This document shows, piece by piece, positions 12,296-41,572 of a DNA stretch of 64,000 bases. The notes under the pieces were generated by a model. That model was given only the letters and a program-made list of their open reading frames with translations, did no database searches and had not been told where the DNA came from. Where the stretch lies: the NCBI GenBank assembly GCA_963720545.1, contig OY970399.1, forward strand, positions 3,200,001-3,264,000, given 5' to 3'. This stretch comes from an uncultured Acidobacteriota bacterium (GTDB taxonomy: Bacteria > Acidobacteriota > Vicinamibacteria > Fen-336). Position 1 is the first letter of the stretch, and the number at the start of each line of letters is the position of its first letter. The translations under genes were made by a program, and so were the position numbers.

Positions 12296-12354
12296 GGCCG
12301 CAAAGGGCTCGACCAGAACCGCGGCGTCCCCCCCAGGGGACGCCCGGCAAACCG

Positions 12355-12383
12355 GCCCGCCTGGCGACAGGCGGGCTTTTTTT
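12355..12383 (+). terminator. Rho-independent terminator
   Basis: GCCCGCCTG-gcga-CAGGCGGGC 9-bp stem followed by T7. Confidence 0.85.
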
Positions 12384-12390
12384 CCCTTCA

Positions 12391-12420
12391 TTGACAGCTT
12401 CCTCACCTTCATGACACGAT
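12391..12420 (+). promoter_or_regulatory. Putative sigma70 promoter of the export operon
   Basis: TTGACA at 12391 and TGnCACGAT extended -10-like element at 12412-12420, just after the terminator. Confidence 0.45.
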
Positions 12421-12478
12421 CCGCCGTTCCCCTTCGGCTACCGGCTTGTAGATCGCCTCAATGCCGTATGGATTACCC

Positions 12479-14436: not shown

Positions 14437-14470
14437 ACGTCAGCCGCTCCCACCGCTAGACAGGCCGCCC

Positions 14471-18299: not shown

Positions 18300-18369
18300 C
18301 GCCTGGTGTGAGCGCCGCCACTCCCCGGCCGCGGGGACGCTTTTGGGACCCTCGATTCTCAGGCCCGAA

Positions 18370-18378
18370 TGATAAAAT
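18370..18378 (+). promoter_or_regulatory. Putative extended -10 element (TGATAAAAT) for the wzc-PPTase-NRPS-PKS operon
   Basis: TGnTAAAAT in 18300-18487 intergenic region; GGAGG RBS at 18476-18480. Confidence 0.4.
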
Positions 18379-18487
18379 CCTCAGTTGCTGCTTTCGGCAT
18401 CGCAGCGGCAGGCGACTGGATACACTAAGTGTCATCGAAAGGGCCCACGAGAGGCGCTGCCAACAGCCCTTCGCGGGAGGGTGAGAA

Positions 18488-20017
18488 GTGAGCGAAGAGC
18501 AAGACTTCGAGCAGGCCGGATCGCACAGCCTCAAGCGCTATCTCGAGATCCCCAAGCGGCGCCCCTGGCACATCGTGGTGCCTTGCATCAGCCTCGCCAT
18601 CGTTGCGCTCGGCGTCAGCTTCCTCATCCCCAAGCTCTACAAGACCCAGACCATGATCCTGGTCGAGAGCCAGAAGGTGCCGGAGTCGATCGTGCGCCGC
18701 AGCTCCGAAGACGAGCAGGCGAAGCCGCGGCTCGCCACCATCCGCCAGGAGATCATGAGCCGCACGCGCATCGAGACCGTGCTGAAGGAGCTGAATCCTT
18801 ACCCAGACCTCATGGGCCGAACCCCGCTCACCAGCATCGTCGAGAAGATGCGCTCCGCCACCGAGATCGTCGTCAAGGGCAACGAGGCCTTCAGCATCGA
18901 GTACGTGCACGAGGACCCGAAGAAGGCCATGGAGGTGACCAACCGCCTCGCCACCTTGTTCATCGACGAGACCTCGCGTTCGCGCGAAGACAGCGTCAAG
19001 GGCGCGAACTCGTTCCTCGAGGAGCAGCTTGCGGACGCGAAGAAGGAGCTCGACGAGAAAGACCGCGAGGTGCGCCGCTACAAGGAGCTGCACACCGGGC
19101 GCCTGCCCGAGCAGACGCCTTCCAACCTGGCGGCGCTCGAGCGCTTCCAGATGGAGCGGCAGAACATCGAAACGCAGCTGTCGTCCGCGCGCCAGCGCGA
19201 GTTGATGCTGGAGCGTGGCGTCGGCGACACCATCACCACCCCCAGCGGGCAGGTGGTCGCCGCCGTCGACCCGAACCGCGACCTCAACAAGGCGCGCGAG
19301 GAGCTCGCGGTGATGCGCACCCGCTACACCGACGAACACCCCGACGTGCGCGCGCAGCTGGCGCGCATCGCGCGGCTGGAGCGCGAAGCCGGCGACGCCG
19401 AGCGCCGCGCCGCCGCCACCACCACGCCGCCGGCGCCGCCCGCCGGCAACCGCATGCAGCTGGAGCAGGTGCGCAGCGACATCCGCGCCCTCGAGATGCG
19501 CAAGGGGCAGACCGAAGCGCAGATGAGCGCCTACCAGGGCCGCGTCGAGGACTCGCCGCGCACCGAGCAGGAGCTGAAGACGCTGACGCGCGACTTCGAC
19601 CAGTTGAACGAGAACTACAAGTCGCTGCTCGCGAAGAAGATCAATGCGCAGATGGCCGAGAAAATGGAGGAGCGCTGGAAGGGCGAGCGCTTCAGCGTCC
19701 TCGACCCGGCCTACGTGCCCGAGGAACCGTACTTTCCGAACCGCACGCTGTTCGCGCTGGTGGGCGCCGTCGCCGGCCTCATCATCGGCCTCAGCCTCGC
19801 GTTCGGCGCCGAACTCTTCGACCAGTCGGTGAAGGACCAGGACGACCTCGCCGACCTCATTCCGCAGCCGGTGCTCGTGATCTTCCCGAGCATCCCGGCG
19901 ACCATCGGACCGGCCCGCGGCGGGCGCAGCGGCGGCGGCGGCTATACGGCGCGCGGCTCAGCCGACGTCCTCGAGCTCGACGAATGGCGGTCGCGCGGCA
20001 GGGCGTCCCGTGGTTGA
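18488..20017 (+). CDS. Polysaccharide chain-length determinant / co-polymerase (Wzz/GumC; N-terminal half of split Wzc)
   Basis: Two TM segments flanking coiled-coil; YTDEHPDV, FSVLDPAYVPEEPYFPNR motifs. Confidence 0.9.
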   Translation: MSEEQDFEQAGSHSLKRYLEIPKRRPWHIVVPCISLAIVALGVSFLIPKLYKTQTMILVESQKVPESIVRRSSEDEQAKPRLATIRQEIMSRTRIETVLKELNPYPDLMGRTPLTSIVEKMRSATEIVVKGNEAFSIEYVHEDPKKAMEVTNRLATLFIDETSRSREDSVKGANSFLEEQLADAKKELDEKDREVRRYKELHTGRLPEQTPSNLAALERFQMERQNIETQLSSARQRELMLERGVGDTITTPSGQVVAAVDPNRDLNKAREELAVMRTRYTDEHPDVRAQLARIARLEREAGDAERRAAATTTPPAPPAGNRMQLEQVRSDIRALEMRKGQTEAQMSAYQGRVEDSPRTEQELKTLTRDFDQLNENYKSLLAKKINAQMAEKMEERWKGERFSVLDPAYVPEEPYFPNRTLFALVGAVAGLIIGLSLAFGAELFDQSVKDQDDLADLIPQPVLVIFPSIPATIGPARGGRSGGGGYTARGSADVLELDEWRSRGRASRG

Positions 20018-20882
20018 GTCGCGCAAGCAGAAGCGCGCCCGCGAGCGCGAGGAATACCGTCACAGCGACGGCGGCACCATCGAGCCGGGCGACCGCGACC
20101 TCCTGGCGCGCGAGCGCCCGACGAGCGACTATGACATCGAGTTCTCGTCGGCAGCCTCGCCCATGGAGGAGGTGAGCTTCGCCACCGTCGCCGAGGTGCG
20201 GCCCCAGCCCGCCTCGCGGCCGGTGGAGTCGGCGCTCGGCGAGAACCACCTCATCTCCGAGGAATTGCGCCTGCTGGTGGTGAAGCTGCGCATCATCGCC
20301 GAGCAGCGGCCGTTTCGCTGCATCGGGATAGCCAGCGCGCTCGGCAACGAGGGCAAGACGACGCTCTCCATCGGCATCGCGGCGGCGCTGGCGCGCGAGA
20401 CCGACACCAACGTGCTGCTGCTCGAGGCCGACCTGCGCCGTCCCGGCATCGAGAACTCGCTCGGCCTGCCGGCGGTGCCCGGCGTCGGCGAATGGATCCA
20501 GGGTGAACCCGGTCCGGTGGCGCTGCGCGTGGTGACTCCGCCCGGATTCTCGGTGCTGAGCGCCGGCAAGACCTCGTTCGAGCGCCCCGAACTCCTGAGC
20601 GGCGGGCGCATGAGCAGCCTGCTGCGCGCCGCGCGCCAGCAGTTCGACTACGTGGTCGTCGACTGTCCGCCGATCCTGCCGGTGGCCGACACCGTCATGC
20701 TGCAGGACCGCCTCGACGGCTTCCTGCTGGTGGTGCGTTCGCGTGCCAGCCCGCGCGAAGCCGTGAAGCGCGCCGCTGCCGCGCTCAAGCCCGACCGCAT
20801 CCAGGGGATCTTGTTCAACGACAGCCAGGAAGCCCTTCACAGCTACGACAAGTACTACTCCCACTACCGCTATCGCCAGTAA
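20010..20882 (+). CDS. CpsD/CapB-family bacterial tyrosine kinase
   Basis: Walker A SALGNEGKTT, EADLRRP, VVVDCPP, C-terminal Tyr cluster SYDKYYSHYRY. Confidence 0.92.
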   Translation: MVESRKQKRAREREEYRHSDGGTIEPGDRDLLARERPTSDYDIEFSSAASPMEEVSFATVAEVRPQPASRPVESALGENHLISEELRLLVVKLRIIAEQRPFRCIGIASALGNEGKTTLSIGIAAALARETDTNVLLLEADLRRPGIENSLGLPAVPGVGEWIQGEPGPVALRVVTPPGFSVLSAGKTSFERPELLSGGRMSSLLRAARQQFDYVVVDCPPILPVADTVMLQDRLDGFLLVVRSRASPREAVKRAAAALKPDRIQGILFNDSQEALHSYDKYYSHYRYRQ

Positions 20883-20892
20883 CCGCGCCGGC

Positions 20893-21672
20893 ATGCTCGG
20901 CGAGGGGGAAGTGGTCTTTGCGTTCGTGCCGCTCGACCATGAACCCGGACCCGCCGAGCACGCCTTGATCGACGCGGAAGAGCGCGCCCGCAGCGAACGC
21001 TTCGTGTACCCCGCGGACCGCCGCCGCTACGTGGTCGCACACGCGGCGTTGCGCCAGTTTCTCGCCGCAACGCTTGGGATCGCGGCCGATGCCGTCCGCT
21101 ACGCCGGAGCAGCGCTCGGCAAGCCGCGGCTGCGTAGCGCCGGCGCCGACGGTCCCTTCTTCAACATGTCGCATTCGGGCGAATTCGCGCTGCTCGCGGC
21201 GACTCGCTGCGGCCCGCTCGGCGTGGACCTCGAGGCGCAGCGCGAGGTGGCCCTGCTTGCCGAGGTCGCCGCAAAAAATTTCTCCGCGGCCGAGTGCCGC
21301 CAGCTCTTCGACCTCCCGCCTGCGGACCATGCTGGGGCATTCCTTCGCTGTTGGACGCGCAAGGAGGCGCTCATCAAGGCCGACGGGCGTGGTTTGTCGC
21401 TGCCGCTCGACAGTTTCGACGTGGAGCTTTGCGGCGGCGCCGGCAACCTCCTGCTCCGGGCTGCCGACGCCGCCGGGCTCGACGGCAGCAAGACTTGGAG
21501 CATCAACGACTTGAAGGCGCCCGTGGGCTACGCCGCCGCCGGCGCGCTCGGCACCGGCGTGTGTCTTCCCGCACGCTGGCGGGAGGTTGTGGGCCCGTCA
21601 CTGGGCGGCGCGAACCCGCACGCTAAGATCGCTTCATCCATGCAACCCAATGGGCCGGGCGGCCGCGCGTGA
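20893..21672 (+). CDS. 4'-phosphopantetheinyl transferase (Sfp type)
   Basis: GKP, FNMSHSG, LGVDLE, WTRKEALIKA motifs. Confidence 0.93.
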   Translation: MLGEGEVVFAFVPLDHEPGPAEHALIDAEERARSERFVYPADRRRYVVAHAALRQFLAATLGIAADAVRYAGAALGKPRLRSAGADGPFFNMSHSGEFALLAATRCGPLGVDLEAQREVALLAEVAAKNFSAAECRQLFDLPPADHAGAFLRCWTRKEALIKADGRGLSLPLDSFDVELCGGAGNLLLRAADAAGLDGSKTWSINDLKAPVGYAAAGALGTGVCLPARWREVVGPSLGGANPHAKIASSMQPNGPGGRA

Positions 21673-21682
21673 GCCGCACAGC

Positions 21683-28003
<6,321 letters not shown>

Positions 28004-31000: not shown

Positions 31001-32785
31001 GCGGCGCCCGGCACGGCGGCGCATGCAGCTGCGGCAGCGCGTCCCGCGGCCGCCGCCGCGGCGGCGACATTCGCCGGTGCCGGCGGCAGCGCCGTGGAAC
31101 GCCTGATCGCCGACCAGCTCGAGTTGATGCGCCAACAGCTCGAGATGATGCGCGGCGGCGCTCCGGCCCCGGCGGCGGCAGCACGGCCCGCGGAGCTTGC
31201 GCCACAGGCGGCAGCGCCGGCGCGCGTGGTGACGAACGCGCCGCCGATCGCCGCACCGGTTGTCGCCTTCGGCCCGTACCGTCCGCCCGCCAAGGGTCCG
31301 ATGGGCGGCCTCACCGAGCGCCAGCAGCAGGGCCTCGCCGCCATCATCGAGCGCTATACGAAGAAGACCGCGGGCTCGAAGGCGGCGACCGCGAAGAACC
31401 GCCCGCACCTCGCCGATCCGCGCTCGGTTGCCGGCTTCCGCCTCATGTGGAAGGAAATCGTCTACCCGATCGTCACGGTGCGCTCTCTCGGCTCGCGACT
31501 CTGGGACGTGGACGGCAACGAGTACGTGGACCTCACCAACGGCTTCGGCATGATCTTCTTCGGCCACAACCCGCAGTTCGTGCGCGACGCGGTGAAGGCG
31601 CAGATGGACCAGGGCGTCGAGATCGGGCCGCAGTCGCCGCTGGCGGGCGAAGTTGCCGAGCGCGTGGCGCGCATGGTCGGCATGGACCGCGTCGCTTTCT
31701 GCAACACCGGCTCGGAAGCGGTCACCGCGGCGATCCGCCTGGCGCGCACGGTCAGCGGCCGCGACAAGATCGCGATGTTCGCCGGCGCCTACCACGGCAT
31801 CTTCGACGAGGTGCTGGTGCGGCCGGCAGGGCAGCGCTCGATGCCGATCGCCCCGGGCATCCCGGCCGGCATGGTCGACAACGTCGTGATCCTCGACTAC
31901 GGCAGCGACAGCGCGCTGGAATACCTGAAGGCGCACGGCTCGGAGCTGGCTGCGCTGCTGGTGGAGCCGGTGCAGAGCCGGCGCCCAGACCTGCAGCCGC
32001 GCGAGTTCCTGCACGAGGTACGCCGCCTCACCGAGGCCTCGGGCACGGCGCTGGTGTTCGACGAAGTGGTCACCGGCTTCCGCACGCATCCCGGCGGCGC
32101 GCAGGCGATCTTCGGCATCAAGGCCGACATGGCGACCTACGGCAAGGTGATCGGCGGCGGCCTGCCGATCGGCCTGATCACCGGCCGCCGCGAATACATG
32201 GACGCGCTCGACGGCGGCTCCTGGCAGTACGGCGACGATTCGATCCCGGAAGTCGGCGTGACCTTCTTCGCCGGCACCTTCGTTCGTCATCCGTTGGCTC
32301 TGGCTGCGGCCAGGGCGGTGGTGGCGCACCTCGAGGAGGCTGGTCCCGAGCTGCAGCGCGGGCTGAACAAGAAGACCACTGCCTTCGCGGCGCGCCTCAA
32401 CGACCACGCCGCGCAGGTCAACGCGCCGGTGCGCGCCATGCACTTCTCGTCGTGGATCTACGTCAACTTCCCGGCCGACGTGAGCCACTCGGGCCTGTTC
32501 CACTTCCTGATGCGCGCGCGCGGCGTGCACGTGTGGGAGGGCCGCTGCTGGTTCCTGACCACCAGCCACACCGACGCCGACCTCGACTTCGTGTTCGAGG
32601 CGTTCCGCGACACGATCGCCGAACTGCAGGCGGCGGAGTTCCTGCCGGGCGGAGTGAGCGAAGCGCCGCTCGCCGGCGCGCGCCGCGGCAAGGACGCCGC
32701 CGGCCGCGACGCCTGGTTCGTTCCGGATCCGGACCGTCCGGGCAAGTACTTCCAGGTCGAGGAGGGTGCGGCCACCCCTAACTGA
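28004..32785 (+). CDS. Type I PKS module KS-AT-ACP fused to class III PLP aminotransferase
   Basis: KS TACSTS/EAHGT/KSNVGH; AT GHSVG, HAFHS; ACP LGLDSL; aminotransferase NTGSEA, FDEVVTGFR, YGKVIGGG. Confidence 0.93.
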   Translation: MSYQDAYDPEEGIAIIGLAGRFPGAADVDEFWRNLEAGRETIASFAPGELEPALGEEAPSRNDPAYVRARGILEGIDLFDASFFGITPKEAEILDPQQRVFMEAAWHALENAGYDARAFGGAIGVFAGMSNNTYFRENLAARADVTDLAGWLTTMMANEKDYLATRIAYKFDLRGPALNIQTACSTSLVAVCAAVQSLLTYQCDLALAGGVSITLPQRRGYLHQEGGITSSDGHCRTFDASASGTVFSNGLGLVALRRLRDALADRDTIYAVIKGAGMNNDGSAKVSFTAPSVSGHAAVIALAQALSGIDPQTISYVEAHGTATPLGDPVELAGLTQAFRAGGAAGTGFCAIGSVKSNVGHLDAAAGVAGLIKTALALHHKTLPASLHFQAPNPKLELESSPFRVVTAREDWRPAPGFPRRAAVSSFGVGGTNAHVVLEEAPPHAGAGGGDSDGEQLLVLSARSREALDLATGHLGEYLASRSDIALADAAFTLQAGRRRFNHRRALVVRDRADALQQLAAAGKAVATESADEGRTVSFLFPGQGSQAPSMARGLYDGDPAFRSDIDECAQVLRAALGFDLREVLYPAPAQEAAAAERLLQTSVTQPALFVVEYALARAWQRLGVEPDGMLGHSVGEYVAATLGSVFTRDDALRLVAQRGQLMQALPPGAMLAVKAGAEAVAELLAAFDGAGVEIAARNAPLLTVVSGTEEKIAAFEERARGAGLAAKRLATSHAFHSAMMEPILETFTKLVAATPRSAPQLPWVSSLTGTWITTAEAQSPAYWAEQLRRPVLFATGAATLLADPRRVTLEVGPGQQLTGLVRQTVQGRAGAASLAPSLLAAAARLWTVGVDLDWTAFQQGAARRRVPLPGYPFEHKRYWVEPGTQALPPAAVAFSQPEQHEEQQMTVTAVSAPARIDALVVRLQALFSDLSGIDAASLPPGTAFLELGLDSLFLTQAATLLQKTFGVKVTFRELLDELSTIGALAAHLDKLLPPDAAPAAPGTAAHAAAAARPAAAAAAATFAGAGGSAVERLIADQLELMRQQLEMMRGGAPAPAAAARPAELAPQAAAPARVVTNAPPIAAPVVAFGPYRPPAKGPMGGLTERQQQGLAAIIERYTKKTAGSKAATAKNRPHLADPRSVAGFRLMWKEIVYPIVTVRSLGSRLWDVDGNEYVDLTNGFGMIFFGHNPQFVRDAVKAQMDQGVEIGPQSPLAGEVAERVARMVGMDRVAFCNTGSEAVTAAIRLARTVSGRDKIAMFAGAYHGIFDEVLVRPAGQRSMPIAPGIPAGMVDNVVILDYGSDSALEYLKAHGSELAALLVEPVQSRRPDLQPREFLHEVRRLTEASGTALVFDEVVTGFRTHPGGAQAIFGIKADMATYGKVIGGGLPIGLITGRREYMDALDGGSWQYGDDSIPEVGVTFFAGTFVRHPLALAAARAVVAHLEEAGPELQRGLNKKTTAFAARLNDHAAQVNAPVRAMHFSSWIYVNFPADVSHSGLFHFLMRARGVHVWEGRCWFLTTSHTDADLDFVFEAFRDTIAELQAAEFLPGGVSEAPLAGARRGKDAAGRDAWFVPDPDRPGKYFQVEEGAATPN

Positions 32786-32812
32786 GCGCTGGCAAGAACA
32801 CGGTTCGGCCGT

Positions 32813-33673
32813 TCACAACAGCTCGACCAACGGCAGGACGACTTGCATGACGCTCAACACGGCGCCGATCATTTTGCTTTTGAGGGACCAGCCGCTGGCA
32901 GCCATCGAGGCGCAGTAGTCCTTCTTGAAGTTGGCCCAGTTGGCCTGGTTCGCGCCGTTGATCGATACCGTGATCGAAGGGCTGAGGATGCGCGCGGTGT
33001 GCCACCAGCCAGACGGTACGAACAGCGTCTCGCCCGCGTGGAGCTGGAAACGGATGCCCTGCGCCTTGTCGAAGAGCGGAAACTTCGCCAGGTCGGGCTG
33101 CATGCCGTCTCCCACCTGCGACTCGTTCCCGTACTTGCTGGTCGTGTTCGGATACACGAATGGCGTCTGATCCGGTGCGTACGCCACGTACTCCTTGTCG
33201 CCGAACACCTGCATCAGGAAGGCGTGCGTGTGGTAACCGTCGTAGTGCAGGACGTGGAACCTTGCACCCGGCCCGCCGATGAAGATCTCCTTGTAAGTCT
33301 GGTCGACTCGCGAAGGAAACAAGGCACTCGCCAACCAGTTGGGCTCGGTGCAGTCGGGCATCGGTGAAATGTCCTTGTGCAACTCCTTCGGCCACTCGGA
33401 GAGCTTCTGGTTGCGCAGATAAGGGGCTGGTTGGCTTGGGCTCGAGGCCATGACCTGGTCGATCAGGTCGTGAAGCGGCATTTCCTTGCCATCGACGCGC
33501 ACCTGCAGGTCGCCGTGGTTGACCTTGAAGAAATCCGGTGTCCAGCGGCCGAGCGCCGGCCAATGCCGGATCGCGTCGGTGATGATGACGGGCCGCAGTG
33601 GCAGCAGGTATTGGAGGATGAAGTCCTCATGGCGCATGCCGCTGCGCCGGTCAATCGCGTTGTCCACCAACAT
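32813..33673 (-). CDS. JmjC/cupin-like Fe(II)/2-oxoglutarate oxygenase
   Basis: RPVII..WPAL..WT N-terminus; HYD...GWWH facial triad; GETLFVPSGWWH. Confidence 0.88.
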   Translation of the reverse strand: MLVDNAIDRRSGMRHEDFILQYLLPLRPVIITDAIRHWPALGRWTPDFFKVNHGDLQVRVDGKEMPLHDLIDQVMASSPSQPAPYLRNQKLSEWPKELHKDISPMPDCTEPNWLASALFPSRVDQTYKEIFIGGPGARFHVLHYDGYHTHAFLMQVFGDKEYVAYAPDQTPFVYPNTTSKYGNESQVGDGMQPDLAKFPLFDKAQGIRFQLHAGETLFVPSGWWHTARILSPSITVSINGANQANWANFKKDYCASMAASGWSLKSKMIGAVLSVMQVVLPLVELL

Positions 33674-33712
33674 AGGTTCGTCTCCTGATCCGATCCGTCC
33701 GATCCTGATCCG

Positions 33713-34621
33713 TCAGCCGGTGTCGACACCCGCCAATGCCGGGCGCGCGGCGGCGTCGGCGTCGACGAAGCCGCGCATCCAATCGACGACTACGCTCGTG
33801 AGCCGGTCCGCTGCGTCGAGCGGAGCAAATGTGTGGTTCGTGCCACCGATGACCGCAACCTGCAACGCGGGGCCTGTCACCAGGCGCCGGGAGAGAAGCT
33901 TGCGGAAGTTATGGTACGACACGTCGTGTCTGGAGTACACGAGGAGAATGCGCCGCGTGCGGCAAGCTTCCTGAATGTCCCTGACCACGTCCTGCCAGGC
34001 CTGGTCTTCGACCAGGCGGTCCTGGCTGATGGGAGTTTCCATCCCCTCCGGTGGCGCCGGCGGCGCCGACCAGACGCTTGTCAGCCCCCTGACGATCAGG
34101 CCCGGATCGCGGAAGGCGCGGCTCCAGGTTCGCGCGTAGAACGCCCGCGCGACCTTGCGGCGCAGTTCGTAGGAAGGGCTGTCGGCCGAGTAGAGCTCGG
34201 CAAGGACGGCGCCGACGACCCGGGGTTCGACGCGCACGATCGCCAGGCCGTTGTCGGCGCCCGAGCAGATGCCGAAGAGGGCGAACTTGCGGATGCCGAG
34301 CCGTTCGTCCAGGAGTCGCATCGCCGCGCGCACTTCGCCGAGAACGCGCTCGCCGTGGCCGGCGTCCGTTGCCGCAAACTCGCTCTCACCGATCCCCGAG
34401 AGGTCGAAACGCAGGGACGCGAACCCGTGCTCGGCCAGGCTTCGCGCCAGCGTGACATGGCAGCGGTTCGGCCCGACGCGATGCACGATGCCGGCGTTCA
34501 GGAAGATCATGGCGACGTCGCGGCAAGGTTGGCCCGGCTCGAGGAGGATCCCCGACAGGGCGTGCCGGTCGCCGAACGCCACGGGCGTTTCCCGGATCAC
34601 GTCGCGTCGGCGCTCAGCCAT
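33713..34621 (-). CDS. Alpha/beta-hydrolase-fold protein with Cys at nucleophile elbow (GICSG)
   Basis: LNAG..HRVGPNR, LRFDLSGIGES, GICSG, TNHTF; resembles EPS/exosortase-associated hydrolase 1 type. Confidence 0.8.
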   Translation of the reverse strand: MAERRRDVIRETPVAFGDRHALSGILLEPGQPCRDVAMIFLNAGIVHRVGPNRCHVTLARSLAEHGFASLRFDLSGIGESEFAATDAGHGERVLGEVRAAMRLLDERLGIRKFALFGICSGADNGLAIVRVEPRVVGAVLAELYSADSPSYELRRKVARAFYARTWSRAFRDPGLIVRGLTSVWSAPPAPPEGMETPISQDRLVEDQAWQDVVRDIQEACRTRRILLVYSRHDVSYHNFRKLLSRRLVTGPALQVAVIGGTNHTFAPLDAADRLTSVVVDWMRGFVDADAAARPALAGVDTG

Positions 34622-35397
34622 TTGACGATCTGCGTGAGGGTGACGGCAGGCACCACGCCCTGGACCGGGTCTTCATCGTCCTTCCAGACCGACACCGGGC
34701 AGGTCGCTTCCTCGACCACCGCGGCGAGCTTTGCCCCCCTGACCGTGGCTGCTCCCGCCGTCGCCGCGCGCGTGTCCGCGTCGATGACCAGCGCGCGTTC
34801 GGCAAGGCGGCGATCGAACGTCTGCAGGGTGAAACCGGCGATCGACTGCCGCATGGCGACCCCGAGGGAAAGGCCGAACATATCCCAGGTTGGGTCCTGC
34901 GGACGCGCGGCGCGCGAAGTGACCCATGGCCGATGGTCGATCCAGGCCTGATGCGTGGCCCAGAGCTCGTCGAGATAGGCCGAACCGTCCCAGACGGGTT
35001 CCCACAGCACCAGGCTTCGCACGTCGCGGCGGGCTCGCGCCGCGAGGCACCCGATGGCCGTGCCCAGGCGCATGCCGACGATCGCCAACCGGGAGACTCC
35101 ACTTTCCTTCTTCAGGATGTCGAGCGCGGCCTGCGTGTCCGACACCCAGTTCTCCAGGCTCGCGTCGGCAAGCGCGCCGGCCGAGTCGCCGGTGCCGCGA
35201 TAGTCGAACCGCAGCACGTGGCAGCCTGCCCGCGCCAACTGCAAACCGAGCCGCCGCAGCGCCCGGTGCGCGCGAAGGTACTCGGCTCCAAAAGGCTGGC
35301 AGACCACGATGCCGAGATCGCGGTCCGCTGAAGACAGGGGCGGCTGGTGAACGCCGAACAGGCGCCCGTCCGCCGGCCCGAAATGGAAGGTTTTCAT
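34597..35397 (-). CDS. Alpha/beta-hydrolase-fold protein with Arg at elbow (GMRLG)
   Basis: ATG 35397 overlaps NRPS stop (ATGA); PFGAE, LRFDYRGTGDSAG, GMRLG, LWEPV.DG..YL; resembles EPS/exosortase-associated hydrolase 2 type. Confidence 0.8.
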   Translation of the reverse strand: MKTFHFGPADGRLFGVHQPPLSSADRDLGIVVCQPFGAEYLRAHRALRRLGLQLARAGCHVLRFDYRGTGDSAGALADASLENWVSDTQAALDILKKESGVSRLAIVGMRLGTAIGCLAARARRDVRSLVLWEPVWDGSAYLDELWATHQAWIDHRPWVTSRAARPQDPTWDMFGLSLGVAMRQSIAGFTLQTFDRRLAERALVIDADTRAATAGAATVRGAKLAAVVEEATCPVSVWKDDEDPVQGVVPAVTLTQIVKWLSADAT

Positions 35398-38300
35398 CCC
35401 GATCGGCTGCGCCGGAGGAGTCGGTCGAGAAAACCGCCGCCATCGGCCGGCGCGTTCGCGGGGGGCTTTGAAACCACCTTGGGCTCGGCCACACCAACGG
35501 TCTGCAGGGAGGCGGCGATCTGCCCCAACGTCTGGAAGATGAGGTCGCGGGTGTGAAGCTTCACGCCGGTGAGCGCGTGGATGCGTTGGGCAGCGTTGAT
35601 GGCCAGGAGGGAGTGGCCGCCCAGGTCGAAGAAATTGTCCTCCGGCCCGACAGTCTCCACTTCGAGGAGTTCGCTCCACACGCCACCGACCAGCCGTTCG
35701 GCGTCGGTGCGCAGCGGCGCCGGCGGCACGCGGCCGCCCGCATGGACGGCGTCGGGCGCGGGCAGTTGCGCCTTGTCGATCTTGCCGTTGGGGGTCAGGG
35801 GCAGCCTGGGAAGAACCACGATCGAGGCGGGCACCATGTACTCGGGGAGCTGCGCGCGCAGCAGCTTGCGCAACTCGTCGATGCCGCCGCGCGATTCGTC
35901 GGCGGCCACATAGGCGACGAGACGCTTGTCGCCAGGCCGATCCTCGCGCACCATGACCGCCGCTTCGCGGATGCCCGGTTGCTGGCCGAGGACCGCCTCG
36001 ATCTCGCCCGGCTCGATGCGGAATCCGCGGATCTTCACCTGCTGGTCGATGCGGCCGAGGTATTCGAGATCGCCGCTCTCGAGGCGCCGGGCAAGGTCTC
36101 CCGAACGGTACAGGCGCCCGGAGCCGGCGAACGTGTCGGGGACGAAGCGCTGCGCCGTGAGCTCCGGCCTGTTCAGGTACCCCGCCGCGACGCCAGCTCC
36201 GCCGACGACGATCTCGCCCGGGACACCCTGCGGCACGGGCTCGCCATCGCCGTCGAGAAGGTAGACACGCAAGTCGGGGATCGGTTCGCCGATGACGCTG
36301 CCGGCGCCCGACTCGAGGTCGGCCAGCCTGATGGGTCGATAGGTCACGTGCACGGTTGTTTCGGTGATCCCGTACATGTTCACCAGGAGCGGCCGGTCCT
36401 CACCGTGCCGCTCGAACCAGGGACGCAGGCTCTGCAGCTCCAGCGCCTCGCCGCCGAAGATGACGTAGCGCAGCTTCAAGGGTGTCACCGTCTCGCTGCC
36501 GAGGTCGGCCTGGATGAGCTGTCGGAACGCCGATGGTGTCTGGTTCAGGACGGTGACACCCTCCGCTGCGAGCAGCTCCAGGAACGACTCCGGCGCACGG
36601 CTGACCCACTGCGGAACGATCACGACGCGTCCGCCGTAGAGCAGCGCGCCCCACAATTCCCATACGGAAAAGTCGAAGGCGTACGAGTGAAACAGCGTCC
36701 AGACGTCGTCCGCGTCGAAGTGAAACCAGTCGTTCGTCGCTTCCAACAGCCGGGCGACGTTGTGGTGGGTGACCCTGACGCCCTTGGGCTTGCCGGTGGA
36801 TCCCGACGTGTAGATGACGTACGCCAGGTCGTCGGGAGCCGAACCGGACGCCGGGATGTCGTCAGCGGCCTCGATCTCGTCGATGAGCGCCACCGTCACC
36901 GTGGCGCCTGCGAAATCATCGGCCAGGGCACGCTCCGTCACGGCTACACGGACGCCGGCGTCCTCGAGCATGAACGTGATCCGGTCGCGCGGATAGGCGG
37001 GATCCATGGGCAGGTATGCGCCACCCGCCTTGAGGATGCCGAGGATGCCGACGGCGACGGACAACGAACGCTCGGTGCGCAAGGCAACCAGGTGGTTGCG
37101 CTCGACGCCCATCTCCCGGAGCCGGGCAGCGAGTCCGTTCGCGCGCCGGTTCAACTCCGCGTAGGTCATGCTGTCGCCGTCGCACGTGGCGGCGACCGCC
37201 GTGGGGCGTGCCCGCGCAACAGCTTCGAACCGTTCATGGAGGCTGCGGCCAGGCGGGGAAGCCACTCGCGGGTTGAAGCGGCCCAGGACATCGGTGCGCT
37301 CGTTCGACGTGAGCAGGCTCAAGGAAGAGTTGACGGCGTCGGGGTTCGCGACGATCGACCGGAGCAGCGTCTCGTAGTGCGCGAGCCAGCGCTTGATGGC
37401 CGCGCCGGTGAACAGGTCGGAGTTGTACGCGCATTCGACGAGCGCGTCCTTGCCGCTGTCCACGACGTTCACCGCGAGCTCGAAGTTCGTGTAGGCCTTC
37501 GGCACCGTCAGTGACGCGATCGCGACGTCCTCGAAGTCGAACGGGGCGCCGATCTTGTCGATGTTGAAGGTGACGGCCACCAGCGGCGTGCGGCTCGCAT
37601 CGCGCGGGATTCTCAGGCGGCGGACCAGGCTGCCGAACGTCAGGTGCGGATGTTCCTGCGCATCCGCCAGGGCCAGGCGAACCGCGCGCAGGTGGGCGAG
37701 GAAAGGCTGGGTTGGATCGACGCGGACGCGCAGCGGCAGCGTGTGGACACAGTGCCCGACGAGCCGCGAGTCGTCGAGAAAGGCCTGGCCGGCGAGCGGG
37801 ATTCCAACGACGAAGTCGTTCTGCCGGGAAAGACGATGGACCAGGAGCTCGAAGGCGGCGAGCAGCGTCGCGAACAGCGTTGCGCCGGCCTTGGCGCCCG
37901 CGCCCTTCAGCGCCGCGTAGAGCTGCGGGTCGATGCGGTGCGTTTCCTGGGCGCCACGGAACGTCTTGGCCTCGGGTCGCGCCCGTGACAGCGGCAGGTC
38001 CAGCACGGGCGCGCCGTCCGCGAATTGGGCCGCCCAGTAGTCCTCGTCGGCCTTCCGGCCTGCGGCGGCGGACGCACCCGCCTGTTCGGTGACGTAGGCC
38101 GCATAGGAGGGCGCTGGCGGCAGTTGCGCGTCGATGCCGGAGCGATCGGCCGCGTAACAGCGGGCGAGATCGCTGAACAGCACGCTCGACGACCAGCCGT
38201 CGCACACGATGTGGTGAACCGTCAGCACGAAGCGGTTGCTGCGTTCGCCCTCGCGGACGACGAGAGCCCGAATCAGCGGGCCGCGCTCGAGGTCGAAGGA

Positions 38301-38681
38301 CGTTTCGCACTCGCGTTCCACGAGGGAATCGATCTCTCGCGCGCGTGCCTCGGTATCGAGCCCCGACATGTCGAGGACCGGCATCTCGACCGAAAACGCC
38401 GGCCGGAGCGTCTGGCCCGAGCCGTCCGCGGAGAGGACGGCTCGCAGCGCGGCGTGACGGGAGACGACCTGTGCGAGGGCCGCGCGCAGGGACTCGGTGC
38501 GCAATTCGCCCTCGAGGGTGAACACGAAGCACTGGTTGTACGAGCGGTTGGCGTCCTCGTCCATCGCCGCCGCGGTCCACATTTCGGCCTGCGGCTCGGT
38601 GAGTGGCAAGGTGTCTGGCTGGCTCTGCGGCGCAAACGGGTCGAAATCGACCGGTACGAGGTTGTGGCCGGTGTCAGTCAT
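35394..38681 (-). CDS. NRPS, domain order C-A(Thr)-T, no thioesterase
   Basis: HHIVCDGWS (C); YTSGSTGKPKG, FDFSVWE, NMYGITETTVH, NGKIDK (A); GGHSL (T). Confidence 0.93.
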   Translation of the reverse strand: MTDTGHNLVPVDFDPFAPQSQPDTLPLTEPQAEMWTAAAMDEDANRSYNQCFVFTLEGELRTESLRAALAQVVSRHAALRAVLSADGSGQTLRPAFSVEMPVLDMSGLDTEARAREIDSLVERECETSFDLERGPLIRALVVREGERSNRFVLTVHHIVCDGWSSSVLFSDLARCYAADRSGIDAQLPPAPSYAAYVTEQAGASAAAGRKADEDYWAAQFADGAPVLDLPLSRARPEAKTFRGAQETHRIDPQLYAALKGAGAKAGATLFATLLAAFELLVHRLSRQNDFVVGIPLAGQAFLDDSRLVGHCVHTLPLRVRVDPTQPFLAHLRAVRLALADAQEHPHLTFGSLVRRLRIPRDASRTPLVAVTFNIDKIGAPFDFEDVAIASLTVPKAYTNFELAVNVVDSGKDALVECAYNSDLFTGAAIKRWLAHYETLLRSIVANPDAVNSSLSLLTSNERTDVLGRFNPRVASPPGRSLHERFEAVARARPTAVAATCDGDSMTYAELNRRANGLAARLREMGVERNHLVALRTERSLSVAVGILGILKAGGAYLPMDPAYPRDRITFMLEDAGVRVAVTERALADDFAGATVTVALIDEIEAADDIPASGSAPDDLAYVIYTSGSTGKPKGVRVTHHNVARLLEATNDWFHFDADDVWTLFHSYAFDFSVWELWGALLYGGRVVIVPQWVSRAPESFLELLAAEGVTVLNQTPSAFRQLIQADLGSETVTPLKLRYVIFGGEALELQSLRPWFERHGEDRPLLVNMYGITETTVHVTYRPIRLADLESGAGSVIGEPIPDLRVYLLDGDGEPVPQGVPGEIVVGGAGVAAGYLNRPELTAQRFVPDTFAGSGRLYRSGDLARRLESGDLEYLGRIDQQVKIRGFRIEPGEIEAVLGQQPGIREAAVMVREDRPGDKRLVAYVAADESRGGIDELRKLLRAQLPEYMVPASIVVLPRLPLTPNGKIDKAQLPAPDAVHAGGRVPPAPLRTDAERLVGGVWSELLEVETVGPEDNFFDLGGHSLLAINAAQRIHALTGVKLHTRDLIFQTLGQIAASLQTVGVAEPKVVSKPPANAPADGGGFLDRLLRRSRSG

Positions 38682-38840
38682 TGAAGATCAGACGTCTCCT
38701 GGCGGGATGACGTGGGCGCCCTTTGCACCACACGAACGAACGCGATCCCATGAGCCGATCCCGCTAAGAGGGGCAGGATCATCCAAGCGTGCCAAATGCT
38801 TCTTGTCCGTGATGTTAGCAGGTTTCATCAGGGGCGCCGT

Positions 38841-38874
38841 GGTGAAGCCCGTCACGGATGCGTAGCGCATCACA
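38841..38874. promoter_or_regulatory. Two adjacent degenerate CRP/Clp-like boxes upstream of the minus-strand NRPS
   Basis: GGTGA-AGCCCG-TCACG (38841-38856) and TGCGT-AGCGCA-TCACA (38859-38874). Confidence 0.35.
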
Positions 38875-38914
38875 ATCGATTCAGTGGGGCGATCAGAGGG
38901 CTATCCCGGCTGCT

Positions 38915-39880
38915 TCATTCCGCGCGTTCGAGCCAGATTTCCCGCCAATACATCAGCTCGCCGCGCGGGCAGTCGCCCAGTTCGTCCTCGCAAAGACAGT
39001 CCCAGTCGTTCAGCTTCTTCGTCCCGGTGCGGACGTTGCGCAACAGGACTGTATCGCGCATTTCCCGCATTTCGCCGGTCGTCTCGTTGATGATCCGGTC
39101 AACCCGCTCCCTGACCTCGGCGCGCGCCCCGCAGTACCTGGTCATTTCGCGGCAGATGCCCATGCCCCGGTTGCTCCGCTTCTGATTCAGGGTCGCTGTG
39201 ATCTCGGCGCGGCTCTTGATTCGGACCGGGTCTCCGGTGATCAGGCCGAGCGAATGGCTCGGCGTGTTCTTGTTGGGTCCGCGGAGCACCCGCTTGCCGT
39301 TCATCGCGCGCTGCAAGCGCAGCGACGACCAGGTGAACAGCACCTTCAGCATCTCCACCAACGAACGATCGCCGTTGAGGATTTCCCGAAGAGCTACGCG
39401 CAACATCCACGGGCTCTTTTTCCCGGGGAAAGCTTCCGTGGCATTCAGCAGCTGGGTGGACTGACAGAAATAGCGCCTCTCATCCGTCCTGGTCTTCAGG
39501 CGAGCGCGCAACGCTTCGGTTCCGGGTTCGGACGCGGGTGTCGGCGTTTCGCCCGCACCGAGCGGCCGCAACCACGCTTCCTTCCAGAAGATCTTGCAGG
39601 CGCGCTTGCAACCATCGTGGCCGCTGCCGTCGCACCGTGACCCCGTCAGGACGACCACGTCGTTCGCGGCAAAACGCCGGTTGGGATATTCGGGAGGCGC
39701 GACCGCCACGCACGTCTTCTCCACCCGATGCTCGACGCGCAGGGGCTTGCCGCACCAATCGAGCATTTCAGGCATGAAGGGCAGGCCGTCCAGGGTGCCG
39801 TCGGCATCCAGGGTCTTCAGGATCTCCTCGGGAGAGCGAACCACCACTGGGTCCCCTGCGCGGAGTCTGTTGCGTTTCAT
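38915..39880 (-). CDS. Hypothetical protein with two internally repeated Cys-containing domains
   Basis: L.GD.V.v.S..EI..TL...EM...CG...V..RV...C...C...W.E.WL appears twice. Confidence 0.75.
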   Translation of the reverse strand: MKRNRLRAGDPVVVRSPEEILKTLDADGTLDGLPFMPEMLDWCGKPLRVEHRVEKTCVAVAPPEYPNRRFAANDVVVLTGSRCDGSGHDGCKRACKIFWKEAWLRPLGAGETPTPASEPGTEALRARLKTRTDERRYFCQSTQLLNATEAFPGKKSPWMLRVALREILNGDRSLVEMLKVLFTWSSLRLQRAMNGKRVLRGPNKNTPSHSLGLITGDPVRIKSRAEITATLNQKRSNRGMGICREMTRYCGARAEVRERVDRIINETTGEMREMRDTVLLRNVRTGTKKLNDWDCLCEDELGDCPRGELMYWREIWLERAE

Positions 39881-39948
39881 GATGATCCTCGTCCGTCTTC
39901 CCGCAGCGTCGTCGTGGTGCTCGCAGGCGAGCTACAGTCGGAGGGGGC

Positions 39949-41514
39949 TCACTCTCTTGCCAGCCCGACGCGCGCGAGGATTTTCGCACGGAGCGACGAA
40001 TCCAGGGCGAACCGCCAGTACAGGGGGACCAGGCTCACCAGCGCCCACGCCGCGGCAACTCCGAGCATGCCCCACGGTCTCGGTATCGGCAAATGATGGA
40101 TGAAAAACAGGCCTAAAGCATAGGGCGTGCAGTAGATGAACGGCTTGGCCAGCGATGACTTGTAGTAGCTAAACACGTTGAAGTGCAGGACGCGCGCCGC
40201 GGCGATCGGCGTGACCGTGCCCACAAAGACGGTGCGTGCCAGCGACACGGCGAGCGCCGCGCCCGTGAGCCCCCAGCCAAGCCGCACGGTGAACAGGTAG
40301 CTGAGCCCGAGGCCGGTGGCCGCGGCGAGCAGCGATTGCTTCGCGAACTGGCCGTGGCGGTTGAGCCCGGCGAGCACTGCCCACACCGGCTTGAACACGA
40401 TGCCCACCAGATTGCCGAGCGCCAGCGCCGCAACCAGGTAACCGTGCGGCGAATACGCCGGCCCCATCCAGGCCCAGAGCAGGTCGTCACCGAGGATCGC
40501 GAAGCTGGTCATCAGAGGCACGACGAAGAATGCGGTGGTGCGCGTCGCCGAAAAGAGCAGATCGCGCACGGCAGTCATGTCGCCGCGGCCCTGCAGCGAG
40601 CTGGCCGTCGGCGTCAGGACGAACGCGAACTTGTCGGCGAGGCTCTCTGTGTGGCGAATGATTGCCCACGGCCGCGCATAGAGGGCGAGCTGCGAGACGC
40701 CGGCGGCGGCAGTGACCATGAGGCTGTTGCCCTGGATCAGGATCAGCGACGAGAGTTGCACGAGGCTGGTCTTGAGGCCGTACGCGAAGGTCTCCTTCGC
40801 CTGCCCGCGGTCGAAGAGCGCGAGCGACACGCGCATCTCCGGACAGACCCTGTAGGCGAGCCTGGCGCGGAACAGCTCGGTGAGGATGGTGATGACGAGC
40901 GTCGCCACGCCAAGGCCGACGATGCCGTAGCCGAGCATCAGCACGATGATGTTGGCGATCACCTGCACGGCGTACGATCCGGCCGCGAGGGCGTTGTGCA
41001 GGTCCCAGCGGTGGCAGCCGGTGATGACGCCGCGGTAGAGGTCGAACGCCATCTGCACGGCAAGGCTCAGGCCGAGCAGCGCCACCAGGACCTGCGCCCG
41101 GCCCACGTCCTCGCCGAGCTGCGCGCCGAACCAGTGTGGCACGCCCCAGGTGGCGGCCAGGGTAAAGAGGGTAACGAGCAGCGCGACGCCGAGCTGCAGC
41201 ATCATCGTCGACGAGGTGACCCGGCGCAGCCCCGCGACGTCGTGCACCGCCCGGTGCTTGGCGACGTAACGGTTCACGGACGAGCCGATGCCGACCTGGG
41301 CGATGCCGAAGTAGGCGACCAGGTTCCAGGCGAAGTCCCAGAGGCCGAGCCCGGCCTGGCCGACCTTGCGGTCGATGATCGGCGGCACGATGAAGCCGCC
41401 GACGATGAAGACGAGGTAGCCGCCCCAGCTCGTCAGGACGTTGCGCAGCAGGCGGCTGCGGCCGGTGAGATCGATGGGGCCGGTCTCGATCCGCGCCGGC
41501 GGCGGATCGCTCAT
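39949..41514 (-). CDS. Oligosaccharide flippase (Wzx/MOP superfamily)
   Basis: Multiple TM helices; RLLRNVLTSW..., GIGSSVNRYVA; start uncertain (41514 or 41574). Confidence 0.85.
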   Translation of the reverse strand: MSDPPPARIETGPIDLTGRSRLLRNVLTSWGGYLVFIVGGFIVPPIIDRKVGQAGLGLWDFAWNLVAYFGIAQVGIGSSVNRYVAKHRAVHDVAGLRRVTSSTMMLQLGVALLVTLFTLAATWGVPHWFGAQLGEDVGRAQVLVALLGLSLAVQMAFDLYRGVITGCHRWDLHNALAAGSYAVQVIANIIVLMLGYGIVGLGVATLVITILTELFRARLAYRVCPEMRVSLALFDRGQAKETFAYGLKTSLVQLSSLILIQGNSLMVTAAAGVSQLALYARPWAIIRHTESLADKFAFVLTPTASSLQGRGDMTAVRDLLFSATRTTAFFVVPLMTSFAILGDDLLWAWMGPAYSPHGYLVAALALGNLVGIVFKPVWAVLAGLNRHGQFAKQSLLAAATGLGLSYLFTVRLGWGLTGAALAVSLARTVFVGTVTPIAAARVLHFNVFSYYKSSLAKPFIYCTPYALGLFFIHHLPIPRPWGMLGVAAAWALVSLVPLYWRFALDSSLRAKILARVGLARE

Positions 41515-41572
41515 CGGCGACTGCGGCGTCAGCGGCTCGCTCACCGGCGGGCCCGGTATATCATCCTTCCCC

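Follow-up and report, generated by a model that had tools for sequence, protein, structure and literature searches.

DltABCD transfers an adenylated, carrier-bound amino acid to a surface polymer, teichoic acid, by an MBOAT route, and the RkpA/WcbR megasynthases are reducing, fatty-acid-type enzymes of ABC-transporter capsule systems, not of Wzx/Wzy systems. Beta-amination by a KS-AT-ACP-aminotransferase module is familiar from mycosubtilin MycA, microcystin McyE and zeamine, whose long lines terminate in a thioesterase (TE) or another release domain and yield a free product; MycA also contains a C-T didomain without an adenylation (A) domain. The exosortase-A/PEP-CTERM exopolysaccharide (EPS) set combines two hydrolases (TIGR03100 and TIGR03101) with a single acyl-CoA ligase (TIGR03098) and a carrier, the three models being themselves hypothetical equivalogs. 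Thr-modified capsules exist, and that of E. coli K54 bears Thr/Ser (PMC13410964). In the Roseobacter group, an orphan NRPS/PKS/glycosyltransferase/PPTase cluster, its product unknown, occurs in 28 of 57 genomes (PMC4337385). Carenaemin production in Collimonas arenae Cal35 depends genetically on a Wzy-type locus, and the authors propose a peptide on the lipid-linked repeat unit (PMC8313283).

Here, an NRPS-PKS assembly line is embedded in a Wzx/Wzy exopolysaccharide locus. Within the window (the whole 64,000-nt stretch of DNA that was analysed) lie Wzx, a polysaccharide co-polymerase (PCP), a kinase and Wza, and a priming glycosyltransferase (GT; PF02397), WecG and a Wzy_C protein are found 21-26 kb ahead of the window start. 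The window opens with the C-terminal part of a heparinase II/III-like protein of the EPS locus, whose gene begins before the window (2..715, + strand; PF07940), followed on the same strand by an AsnB-like amidotransferase of EPS-locus type (719..2614; PF00733; TIGR03108, 545 bits, below the cut-off of 817) and a carbamoyltransferase of the NodU/CmcH family (2989..4731; PF02543 and PF16861). Two GT4 glycosyltransferases occupy the - strand (4747..7019; PF00534/PF13692). The + strand then carries the Wza/OPX polysaccharide export protein (12461..13117; PF02563), a polysaccharide deacetylase (14471..15463; PF01522), which is a candidate supplier of a free amine acceptor, an ATP-grasp-like protein (15544..16632; weak PF15632) whose relatives (cluster c15) repeatedly adjoin the line or the hydrolase pair, and a TPP-dependent, acetolactate-synthase-like enzyme (16629..18299; PF02775/02776/00205).

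The + arm consists of the PCP/Wzz-like co-polymerase, the membrane half of a split Wzc (18488..20017; PF13807 and PF02706; TIGR03007-like), a BY-type tyrosine autokinase with a Tyr-rich tail (20010..20882; TIGR03018/TIGR01007-like, and by sequence), a 4'-phosphopantetheinyl transferase (PPTase; 20893..21672; PF01648 and PF22624), NRPS1 (21683..28003, most likely starting at ATG 21683) and the PKS (28004..32785). Co-polymerase and kinase overlap by 8 nt, gaps of 10 nt separate the kinase from the PPTase and the PPTase from NRPS1, and NRPS1 abuts the PKS with a 0-nt gap. These coordinates agree with the initial annotation, which had read wzz, kinase, PPTase, NRPS and PKS in this order at gaps of 10 nt or less; its "wzz" and the kinase together represent a Wzc-type protein split in two (TIGR03007, 248 bits against a cut-off of 279; TIGR03018, 113 against 231).

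On the - strand, the Wzx-type flippase (39949..41574; PF13440, NF041503 weak) is followed by a Cys-rich protein of an unnamed family with two SH3-like barrels (38915..39880), NRPS2 (35394..38681), Hyd2, a pseudo-hydrolase without a nucleophile (34597..35397; TIGR03101-like, under the cut-off), Hyd1, an alpha/beta-hydrolase-fold protein with Cys119 and His263 (33713..34621; TIGR03100-like, under the cut-off), and a JmjC/cupin_8 oxygenase (32813..33673; PF13621), whose end converges head-on with that of the PKS, 27 nt between them. NRPS2 and hyd2 overlap by 4 nt and hyd2 and hyd1 by 25 nt, with gaps of 39 nt between hyd1 and JmjC and 68 nt between the flippase and the Cys-rich gene. The Cys-rich protein belongs to the assembly-line cassette; because 233 nt separate its gene from NRPS2, the flippase and the - arm may not be transcribed together (promoters were scanned over 18000-37999). 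The earlier view that both halves of the line sit downstream of core EPS genes stands as gene order. The JmjC gene recurs together with the cassette, and its product is likely a tailoring hydroxylase. Pfam/NCBIfam profile searches matched no efflux or resistance family between 18488 and 41514, as had been noted at first for dedicated genes of either kind.

By domain matches, NRPS1 has the order C-A(Thr)-T-E-C-T, with an epimerisation (E) domain and, as in MycA, an A-less C-T didomain at its end, and NRPS2 is a terminal C-A(Thr)-T module. The PKS (domain matches, motifs) is KS-AT-ACP-aminotransferase (class III PLP) and lies between the NRPS modules, as in a hybrid NRPS-PKS with an aminotransferase module. 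Catalytic motifs are intact (TACSTS, EAHGT, KSNVGH, GHSVG, HAFH and TYGK, with four carrier Ser motifs), and both A domains bear a Thr code, in keeping with the Thr-containing product first proposed. In homologues the aminotransferase is fused to the following C domain; most begin with a bare A domain, and the amino-acid codes differ widely across the family. Unlike the MycA, McyE and zeamine lines, this one is not a canonical line terminated by TE or reductase (R): Pfam detects neither domain in NRPS1, PKS or NRPS2, including the C-termini of NRPS2 and the PKS, and the five PF00975 matches in the genome all fall outside the window. The initial annotation had taken the line to lack any such release domain, which holds for the megasynthases and does not make the line release-less, Hyd1 being a credible free-standing release enzyme. 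The informative trait is not the absence of a TE, because the hydrolase pair is a likely release unit and a TE is present in those EPS-linked homologues that lack the pair.

The carenaemin loci likewise encode a hybrid PKS/NRPS with KS-AT, aminotransferase and E domains, but they differ in comprising two unlinked loci with their own thioesterase, a diffusible antifungal product and Gln/Ser/Leu codes, and their description includes no hydrolase pair of the Hyd1/Hyd2 type (PMC8313283). The Roseobacter cluster, likened here by its description, also combines a small NRPS, a PKS and a PPTase with a sugar-transfer gene; as described, it has four genes, and the account says nothing of an aminotransferase domain, of a hydrolase pair or of a Wzx/Wzc setting (PMC4337385). 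RkpA/WcbR share with this line the placement of a megasynthase gene within a cluster for surface-polysaccharide biosynthesis and export (PMC3908369), but are PKSs without NRPS or aminotransferase. Identity with these capsule PKSs was considered and rejected, as the window PKS has no KR, DH or ER and is flanked by NRPS modules on both sides.

Hyd1 and Hyd2 are encoded as an adjacent pair in an EPS locus, as in the TIGR03100/TIGR03101 sets, and these are their best NCBIfam matches; models of the exosortase-A (XrtA) locus also match best the co-polymerase, kinase, Wza and amidotransferase. All window scores are nevertheless under the cut-offs (Hyd1 against TIGR03100, 74.9 bits, cut-off 168.45; Hyd2 against TIGR03101, 88.9 bits, cut-off 202.75), so that by score the two do not qualify as exosortase-A-associated hydrolases 1 and 2, and the donor here is a three-protein NRPS-PKS, in contrast to a single ligase with a carrier. 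In the genome, which is 94.8% complete, no match to exosortase (PF09721) was found, and a simple pattern run over 3142 rough ORFs returned no PEP-CTERM tails. Hyd1 has the hallmarks of a Cys-nucleophile alpha/beta-hydrolase, namely a G-x-C-x-G elbow (GICSG), a C-terminal His and fold matches at Z about 20; Cys119 and His263 are invariant in all 40 aligned rows, and the nucleophile is absent from Hyd2 in 37 of 37. Structure modelling predicts that the two proteins bind each other, with a complex score of 0.87 against 0.00 for the best control, runs that share at least 79% of contacts and a partner pLDDT of at least 85; the mark set for this score is attained by 116 of 157 solved pairs and 2 of 215 mismatched pairs. 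Natural Hyd2-Hyd1 fusions occur in some bacteria, adjoining a carrier protein and an amino-acid:ACP ligase. Hyd1 is likely a release or transacylation enzyme. GrgF (PDB 6lzh) is a chain-fusing alpha/beta-hydrolase that joins the chain made by a PKS to a second acyl chain (PMC8902786). It has the fold in common with Hyd1 (Z 19.6, rmsd 4.9, 222 aligned), and the elbow Cys of the two proteins align (E 0.033); however, GrgF is fungal, is 18% identical and ties in Z with many esterases, standing level in the fold search with esterases, dienelactone hydrolases and a thioesterase. We know of no pseudo-enzyme partner of GrgF. Cys nucleophiles are found in true hydrolases too.

In relatives, linkage between the line and EPS genes exceeds chance. 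In 24 of 50 genomes (about 3.9 expected), a homologous line has wza or a priming GT no more than 50 kb away; among the 25 well-assembled genomes that give a full view, of 80 kb or more, the number is 17 (about 2.5 expected). These counts overstate significance because they include related, non-independent genomes. The linkage recurs in Pseudomonadota, Actinomycetota, Bacteroidota, Ignavibacteriota and Myxococcota with differing gene orders, and all five same-architecture clusters on long contigs have a priming GT no more than 30 kb away, four of these clusters lying amid Wzx/Wzy and GT genes. In the family relatives G020, G024 and G036, the hydrolase pair stands between EPS genes and another megasynthase set, the EPS core of G020 and G036 resembling that of the window at 40-52%. 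Eleven further hyd1 loci have glycan genes in ten cases and carrier or adenylation genes in nine, and the pair occurs among EPS genes alongside unrelated carrier systems. The four Lautropia genomes all have an unlinked line with no pair beside it, and hyd1 is 3.1-3.3 kb from a priming GT, in the co-directional order priming GT, UDP-sugar dehydrogenase, hyd2, hyd1 (read in two of the four). In each of the genomes without hyd1 (6 of the 25), a TE is found no further than 6 kb from the line, and the TE nucleophile is Cys in four of five free and seven of nine fused TEs read. The co-occurrence expected at the outset is largely borne out by the counts, though not throughout: by the 50-kb test, 8 of the 25 full-view genomes show no linkage, and because such unlinked homologues exist, what the initial annotation had named as speaking against a tie is seen in a minority of cases.

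We favour, with a probability of roughly 0.55, the transfer of a Thr/beta-amino-acyl unit to the lipid-linked repeat unit by transacylation, ahead of flipping; attachment of the product to the glycan is what we infer. In this scheme, the PPTase would prime the four carrier domains, and NRPS1 would load Thr, couple it to a starter at the first C domain, epimerise it and hand it through the A-less C-T didomain. The PKS would add one malonate and its aminotransferase would replace the beta-ketone by an amine to yield a 3,4-diamino-acyl unit, to which NRPS2 would supply a second Thr, with JmjC likely hydroxylating one position. Hyd1, held by the catalytically dead Hyd2, would accept the chain as a Cys thioester and pass it, in the cytoplasm, to an amine or hydroxyl group, either on a nucleotide sugar or on the undecaprenyl-linked repeat unit, and the decorated unit would be flipped by Wzx and polymerised and exported by Wzy, Wzc and Wza. 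We propose that the line is a widespread variant of carrier-protein glycan acylation, unlike Dlt and amino-acid-bearing capsules such as that of E. coli K54, which involve single amino acids and no elongation. More tentatively, and at slightly less than even odds, interchangeable lines (NRPS-PKS, multi-PKS or amino-acid:ACP ligase) may all feed Wzx/Wzy through one heterodimeric active/dead Cys transacylase, as a general and so far unrecognised way of making exopolysaccharides that bear peptides. If so, many "orphan" soil NRPS-PKS clusters would make matrix chemistry rather than metabolites for secretion, and the glycan acyltransferase that is missing would be found in pairs of the TIGR03100/03101 type.

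Transacylation onto the repeat unit would bring megasynthase chemistry to biofilm matrix structure; genome mining reads such clusters as sources of secreted products, and a polymer-bound product would escape extract-based screens. The coupling step gains a concrete candidate enzyme, Hyd1 Cys119 with Hyd2, and two long-unassigned hydrolase families of EPS loci a candidate function. The finding points to cultured strains, namely Hyphomicrobium sp. GJ21, Thiomonas delicata (DSM 16361), Variovorax spp. (sp. CF313 among them) and Lautropia dentalis.

The linkage, a cytoplasmic transacylase and the missing efflux pump would be accounted for equally if the line and the Wzx machinery made a small diffusible glycoconjugate along the lines suggested for carenaemin, in which the peptide is attached to a lipid-linked oligosaccharide and, after flipping, set free. 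The 835/849 Da product of Collimonas arenae needs both a KS-AT-aminotransferase hybrid and a Wzy-dependent locus (PMC8313283), and a heparinase-like lyase gene is present in our locus. We nevertheless consider this unlikely, since the line here stands directly behind a co-polymerase and kinase that serve long-chain export, whereas the cluster for carenaemin shows no linkage to the Wzy locus and includes regulators and a thioesterase gene of its own, and the carenaemin model is itself unproven, with no complementation (PMC8313283).

A touch less probable still is that Hyd1/Hyd2 is a plain hydrolytic thioesterase that sets free a small peptide-polyketide, acting as signal, surfactant or chelator and merely co-regulated with matrix genes. 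This would suit the Variovorax genomes G087, G098 and G099, in which the pair adjoins the line and EPS markers are more than 140 kb off or on other contigs, the plasmid copies in Spirosoma and Variovorax WDL1 without EPS export genes, and the second pair of the same genome, which ends a multi-PKS cluster where 92 kb of sequence read showed no Wzx/Wzy gene. It would also suit the Ser-type TEs that terminate the Pedobacter and Mucilaginibacter versions, and the 52% identity of aminotransferase domains in large Ralstonia NRPS/PKS genes, presumably the ralstonin lipopeptide line. However, it leaves unaccounted for the Lautropia pair in EPS operons away from the line, the pair among EPS genes with unrelated carrier systems, and the predominance of Cys in three differing release architectures.

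It is improbable that the product is a lipopeptide by which the polymer is anchored at the cell surface, a function attributed to RkpA/WcbR-type PKSs in capsule loci; the initial annotation also named an anchor role. Type I PKS genes do occur in capsule clusters (PMC3908369), and a fatty acyl starter is conceivable at the first C domain. The anchor is nonetheless poorly supported, because the Pfam search of the cassette turned up neither a fatty-acyl ligase nor any reductive PKS domain (KR, DH or ER); moreover, a bare A domain starts most homologues, and Thr residues with a free amine would give a polar product. Least probable of all is the hitch-hiking of a mobile biosynthetic cassette in a variable EPS island, to which the megasynthases closest to proteobacterial and mycobacterial copies (47-62%), the EPS core closest to family relatives and the transposases adjoining some homologues would point, but against which stand the recurrence in five phyla with differing gene orders, the translational coupling to the kinase and the 0 of 21 other TE matches within 50 kb of wza or a priming GT in the same 25 genomes (an eye count with contig sizes unaccounted for, hence a weak control).

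Glycan acylation of the Dlt/MBOAT type was also considered and rejected, with no MBOAT match among the window and upstream proteins scanned. One Myxococcales homologue holds an MBOAT.

The pairing of an NRPS-PKS assembly line with an exopolysaccharide (EPS) locus in the window is real, intact and widespread, and the hydrolase pair hyd1 (33713..34621, -) and hyd2 (34597..35397, -) is proposed as the specific, predicted candidate for the coupling enzyme. ORF calling and family scans of the source genome (G000; one contig, 4.09 Mb, 68.7% GC, 94.8% complete; window at C1:3200001-3264000) bore out the gene map of the initial annotation, in which both halves of the line sit downstream of core EPS genes. 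On the plus strand, the co-polymerase gene (18488-20017) overlaps the kinase gene (20010-20882) by 8 nt, followed by the PPTase (20893-21672) after 10 nt, NRPS1 (about 21683-28003) after another 10 nt and the PKS (28004-32785) with a 0-nt gap. The minus-strand order is Wzx, the Cys-rich gene, NRPS2, hyd2, hyd1 and JmjC, spaced in turn by a 68-nt gap, a 233-nt gap, a 4-nt overlap, a 25-nt overlap and a 39-nt gap; a promoter and terminator scan of positions 18000-37999 gave a signal no better than chance. The EPS locus extends beyond the stretch first flagged. Family scans place Wza, a deacetylase, an ATP-grasp-like protein, a TPP-dependent enzyme, two GT4s, AsnB and a carbamoyltransferase at positions 1-18300. 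Within 26 kb before the window, with unrelated genes in between, there are a UDP-GlcNAc 2-epimerase, a priming glycosyltransferase (GT), WecG, a Wzy_C protein and a sulfotransferase.

Several minor features accompany this locus. At G000:C1:3181600-3197500 it is split by carA/carB, a molybdopterin oxidoreductase subunit, a sulfatase and TPR genes, with fragmented ORFs and possible frameshifts around 3191000-3196500, and at window positions 7086-12295 it is interrupted by a beta-helix protein, a YdjM-like membrane protein and a Calx-beta/FG-GAP surface protein. Directly after wza, a 424-aa secreted-looking protein (13162-14436) has no Pfam or NCBIfam match, and its position would suit an outer-membrane barrel partner of Wza. 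The TPP-dependent enzyme in the EPS operon (16629-18299), which has a counterpart in the homologous locus L117/L118, could supply a branched-chain sugar or acyl unit. The class II (B12-dependent) ribonucleotide reductase with its TSCPD domain (43931-46726) has no relation to the assembly line.

NRPS1 is arranged as C-A-T-E-C-T, the last C-T didomain being without an A domain; its residues about 1075-1534 match epimerisation domains of known structure from the tyrocidine and gramicidin S synthetases and carry the E motifs. The A domains of NRPS1 and NRPS2, 67% identical to each other, share the code DFWNIGMVHK, the code for Thr. The catalytic motifs of the line are all intact: KS, AT, PLP lysine, C-domain histidine and carrier serine. 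C-domain subtypes were assigned from pairwise identity and sequence motifs, not from a reference tree. Because an NRPS2-type C domain comes after the aminotransferase of homologues, and is often fused to it, the order NRPS1, PKS, NRPS2 is fixed. The core product predicted from these domains would be a starter-(D)-Thr unit extended with malonate, aminated at the beta-carbon and joined to L-Thr.

The likely candidate for release of this chain is the hydrolase pair. Neither a TE nor a reductase domain occurs in the line, and all five TE matches of the genome lie elsewhere. Hyd1 and hyd2 are remotely related to TIGR03100 and TIGR03101, with scores under the cut-off. In sequences taken from the loci retrieved, of which some are repeated where stretches overlap, Cys119 and His263 of hyd1 are invariant (40/40) and the nucleophile is absent from hyd2 (37/37); the closest pair in these loci is that of an Acidobacteria record (L097). 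The hyd1 model (pLDDT 83.8) has the alpha/beta-hydrolase fold, and in a VIA-align search it matched GrgF (Z 19.6, rmsd 4.9, 222 aligned), tied with esterases and a thioesterase, with the GrgF Cys aligned to Cys119. GrgF fuses two polyketide chains, according to a review (PMC8902786). The predicted hyd1-hyd2 complex scored 0.87 against 0.00 for the best control. Among solved complexes 116 of 157 reach this mark, and among mismatched pairs 2 of 215; runs share at least 79% of contacts, and partner pLDDT is at least 85. This modelling supports binding of hyd1 to hyd2. On inspection neither protein has a signal peptide, and the transfer step is therefore likely cytoplasmic. We give a probability of about 0.55 to the chain being transacylated onto the repeat-unit precursor in the cytoplasm, a step in which hyd1/hyd2 would move the peptide-polyketide chain to the polysaccharide precursor on the cytoplasmic side. 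A match of hyd2 to an SglT model was weak (E 2e-7) and the lead was dropped; sglT mutants are reported to make normal amounts of EPS, with no enzymology given (PMC9108774).

The pair also occurs in other settings. We found hyd1 in 7 of 60 relatives and in at least 8 of 300 phylum genomes besides the source genome. In three relatives (G020, G024, G036) it has EPS genes on one side and another multi-PKS/NRPS set on the other; the EPS cores of G020 and G036 are 40-52% identical to that of the window, while the closest copies of the window's megasynthases are in other phyla. Eleven further hyd1 loci carry glycan genes in 10 cases and carrier, adenylation or megasynthase genes in 9. An Azospirillum operon encodes a 592-aa hyd2-hyd1 fusion, and 575-aa fusions stand in the same setting among glycosyltransferases in two genomes of the window's phylum; these operons (L134:8356-15942; L167; L168) hold a carrier protein, an acyl-CoA dehydrogenase, an amino-acid:ACP ligase, DUF1839 and a GH2-like protein. 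UDP-sugar enzymes and glycosyltransferases flank the two in the window's phylum, and the operon with the fusion may be a context for orphan amino-acid:ACP ligases.

In its proposed working, the line resembles Dlt, the carrier-protein acylation of surface glycans, but no MBOAT was found among the window and upstream proteins scanned. Parts are likewise shared with the exosortase-A locus set, but the family scores fall under the cut-offs and no exosortase match (PF09721) was found in the 94.8% complete genome; PEP-CTERM membership was considered and not assigned. Partial precedents are capsule loci with PKS genes (PMC3908369), an orphan Roseobacter NRPS/PKS/GT cluster (PMC4337385) and the Thr-modified K54 capsule (PMC13410964). 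Thiopeptidoglycan sheaths, considered as a precedent for peptide-bearing EPS, were not counted as evidence. A literature search of main texts, mostly outside subscription journals, found no characterised NRPS-PKS decorating a Wzx/Wzy polymer. The same machinery might instead make a diffusible glycoconjugate, for which carenaemin is a partial precedent (PMC8313283); we regard this as unlikely, though the foremost of the alternatives.

Slightly less probable, and also doubtful, is a free product that is merely co-regulated with the EPS genes. A second, larger cluster in the source genome (G000:C1:3793000-3838000) holds a type II TE, at least six PKS genes, a two-module NRPS and a second hyd1/hyd2 pair, which closes this PKS cluster at 3.79-3.84 Mb; the 92 kb read there contain no Wzx/Wzy gene. 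On plasmids, the aminotransferase module was seen three times, each without EPS export genes; the Nostoc copy belongs to a larger, different line.

Linkage to EPS genes was assessed among the 195 relatives that an aminotransferase-domain search of the species-genome collection returned, of which the best 80 were retained for locus reading; a whole-PKS query against 60 relatives had given mostly generic KS-AT matches and was set aside. Within 10 kb, the 57 of these 80 loci showing at least three other genes have a hydrolase pair in 30, a PPTase in 35 and a glycan-related gene in 32. The common homologue form is A-T-KS-AT-ACP-aminotransferase followed by C-A-T-C-T, with A-domain codes mostly Val-like and Gly. 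We located wza and priming GT genes for 50 of the 80 loci (contigs of at least 28 kb). A marker of either kind is no more than 50 kb away on the line's contig in 24 of 50 genomes, where marker number and visible span predict 3.9. Among the genomes with at least 80 kb visible the count is 17 of 25 against 2.5 expected. The excess is a pattern and not a p-value, kin not being independent. The tree of aminotransferase domains comprised the window, the 24 linked copies and the 8 unlinked ones with full view, leaving aside 18 unlinked genomes with a short view; on it, the linkage label needs four changes, three of them forced by strong branches. In a rough control read by eye, 0 of 21 TE matches outside these clusters fell within 50 kb of wza or a priming GT.

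The five clusters on long contigs that share the window's architecture (Hyphomicrobium GJ21, two Alphaproteobacteria, a Gammaproteobacterium and a Mycobacteriaceae genome) each have a priming GT no more than 30 kb away. In four of them the line is surrounded by Wzx, Wzy and GT genes; the fifth (L032) has GTs and a priming GT only. Among cultured, non-pathogenic carriers, Hyphomicrobium sp. GJ21 has the C-A-T-E-C-T form, and Thiomonas delicata and Variovorax sp. CF313 have the shorter one. In the Mycobacteriaceae genome (L041; L121-L123) the line adjoins Wzx, Wzy_C and priming GT genes, and its aminotransferase is sister to a gammaproteobacterial copy in an analysis that is not rooted, which suggests transfer between phyla. 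In a Myxococcales EPS locus (L109; L129:12170-16997), the line is immediately preceded by genes for an MBOAT, a small carrier-like protein and a stand-alone A domain, and TIGR04325-family methyltransferases recur next to the shorter form of the line (L060, L066, L070, L104, L110, L133).

Among the unlinked genomes, three Variovorax are true counter-examples to EPS linkage. Lautropia accounts for four of the eight with full view and has no hydrolase pair beside the line; in all four, hyd1 sits 3.1-3.3 kb from a priming GT. In the two stretches read, priming GT, UDP-sugar dehydrogenase, hyd2 and hyd1 follow one another in the same direction, and neither stretch showed a megasynthase-like gene. 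In Hyphococcus, Wzx directly follows the pair. Six of the 25 full-view genomes lack hyd1; in each of the six, a TE lies no more than 6 kb from the line. Two genomes have both hyd1 and a TE. Of the TEs read, 4 of 5 free-standing and 7 of 9 fused ones have Cys as the nucleophile, and the other three have Ser. The closest homologues (L036:14723-15727, L038, L040, L041) have a free-standing TubC_N docking domain and a thioesterase, its nucleophile Cys (GxCAG), in place of the pair. That the product is a lipid anchor is quite improbable; the family scan found neither an acyl ligase nor reductive domains in the line. Least probable is a hitch-hiking cassette with no functional tie to the EPS locus.

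The Cys-rich protein (38915..39880, -) has more than 4,000 homologues with several invariant cysteines, has no Pfam or NCBIfam match and falls only into unnamed Atlas clusters. Its model (pLDDT 89.9) has two SH3-like barrels, and the best fold match, to SH3-like repeats, was below the tool's meaningful level (Z 6.4); our guess is a metal-binding adaptor. The protein travels with the assembly-line cassette: 15 of its 25 metagenome loci also carry a megasynthase, TE, JmjC, PPTase or hydrolase gene, most of the others being short.
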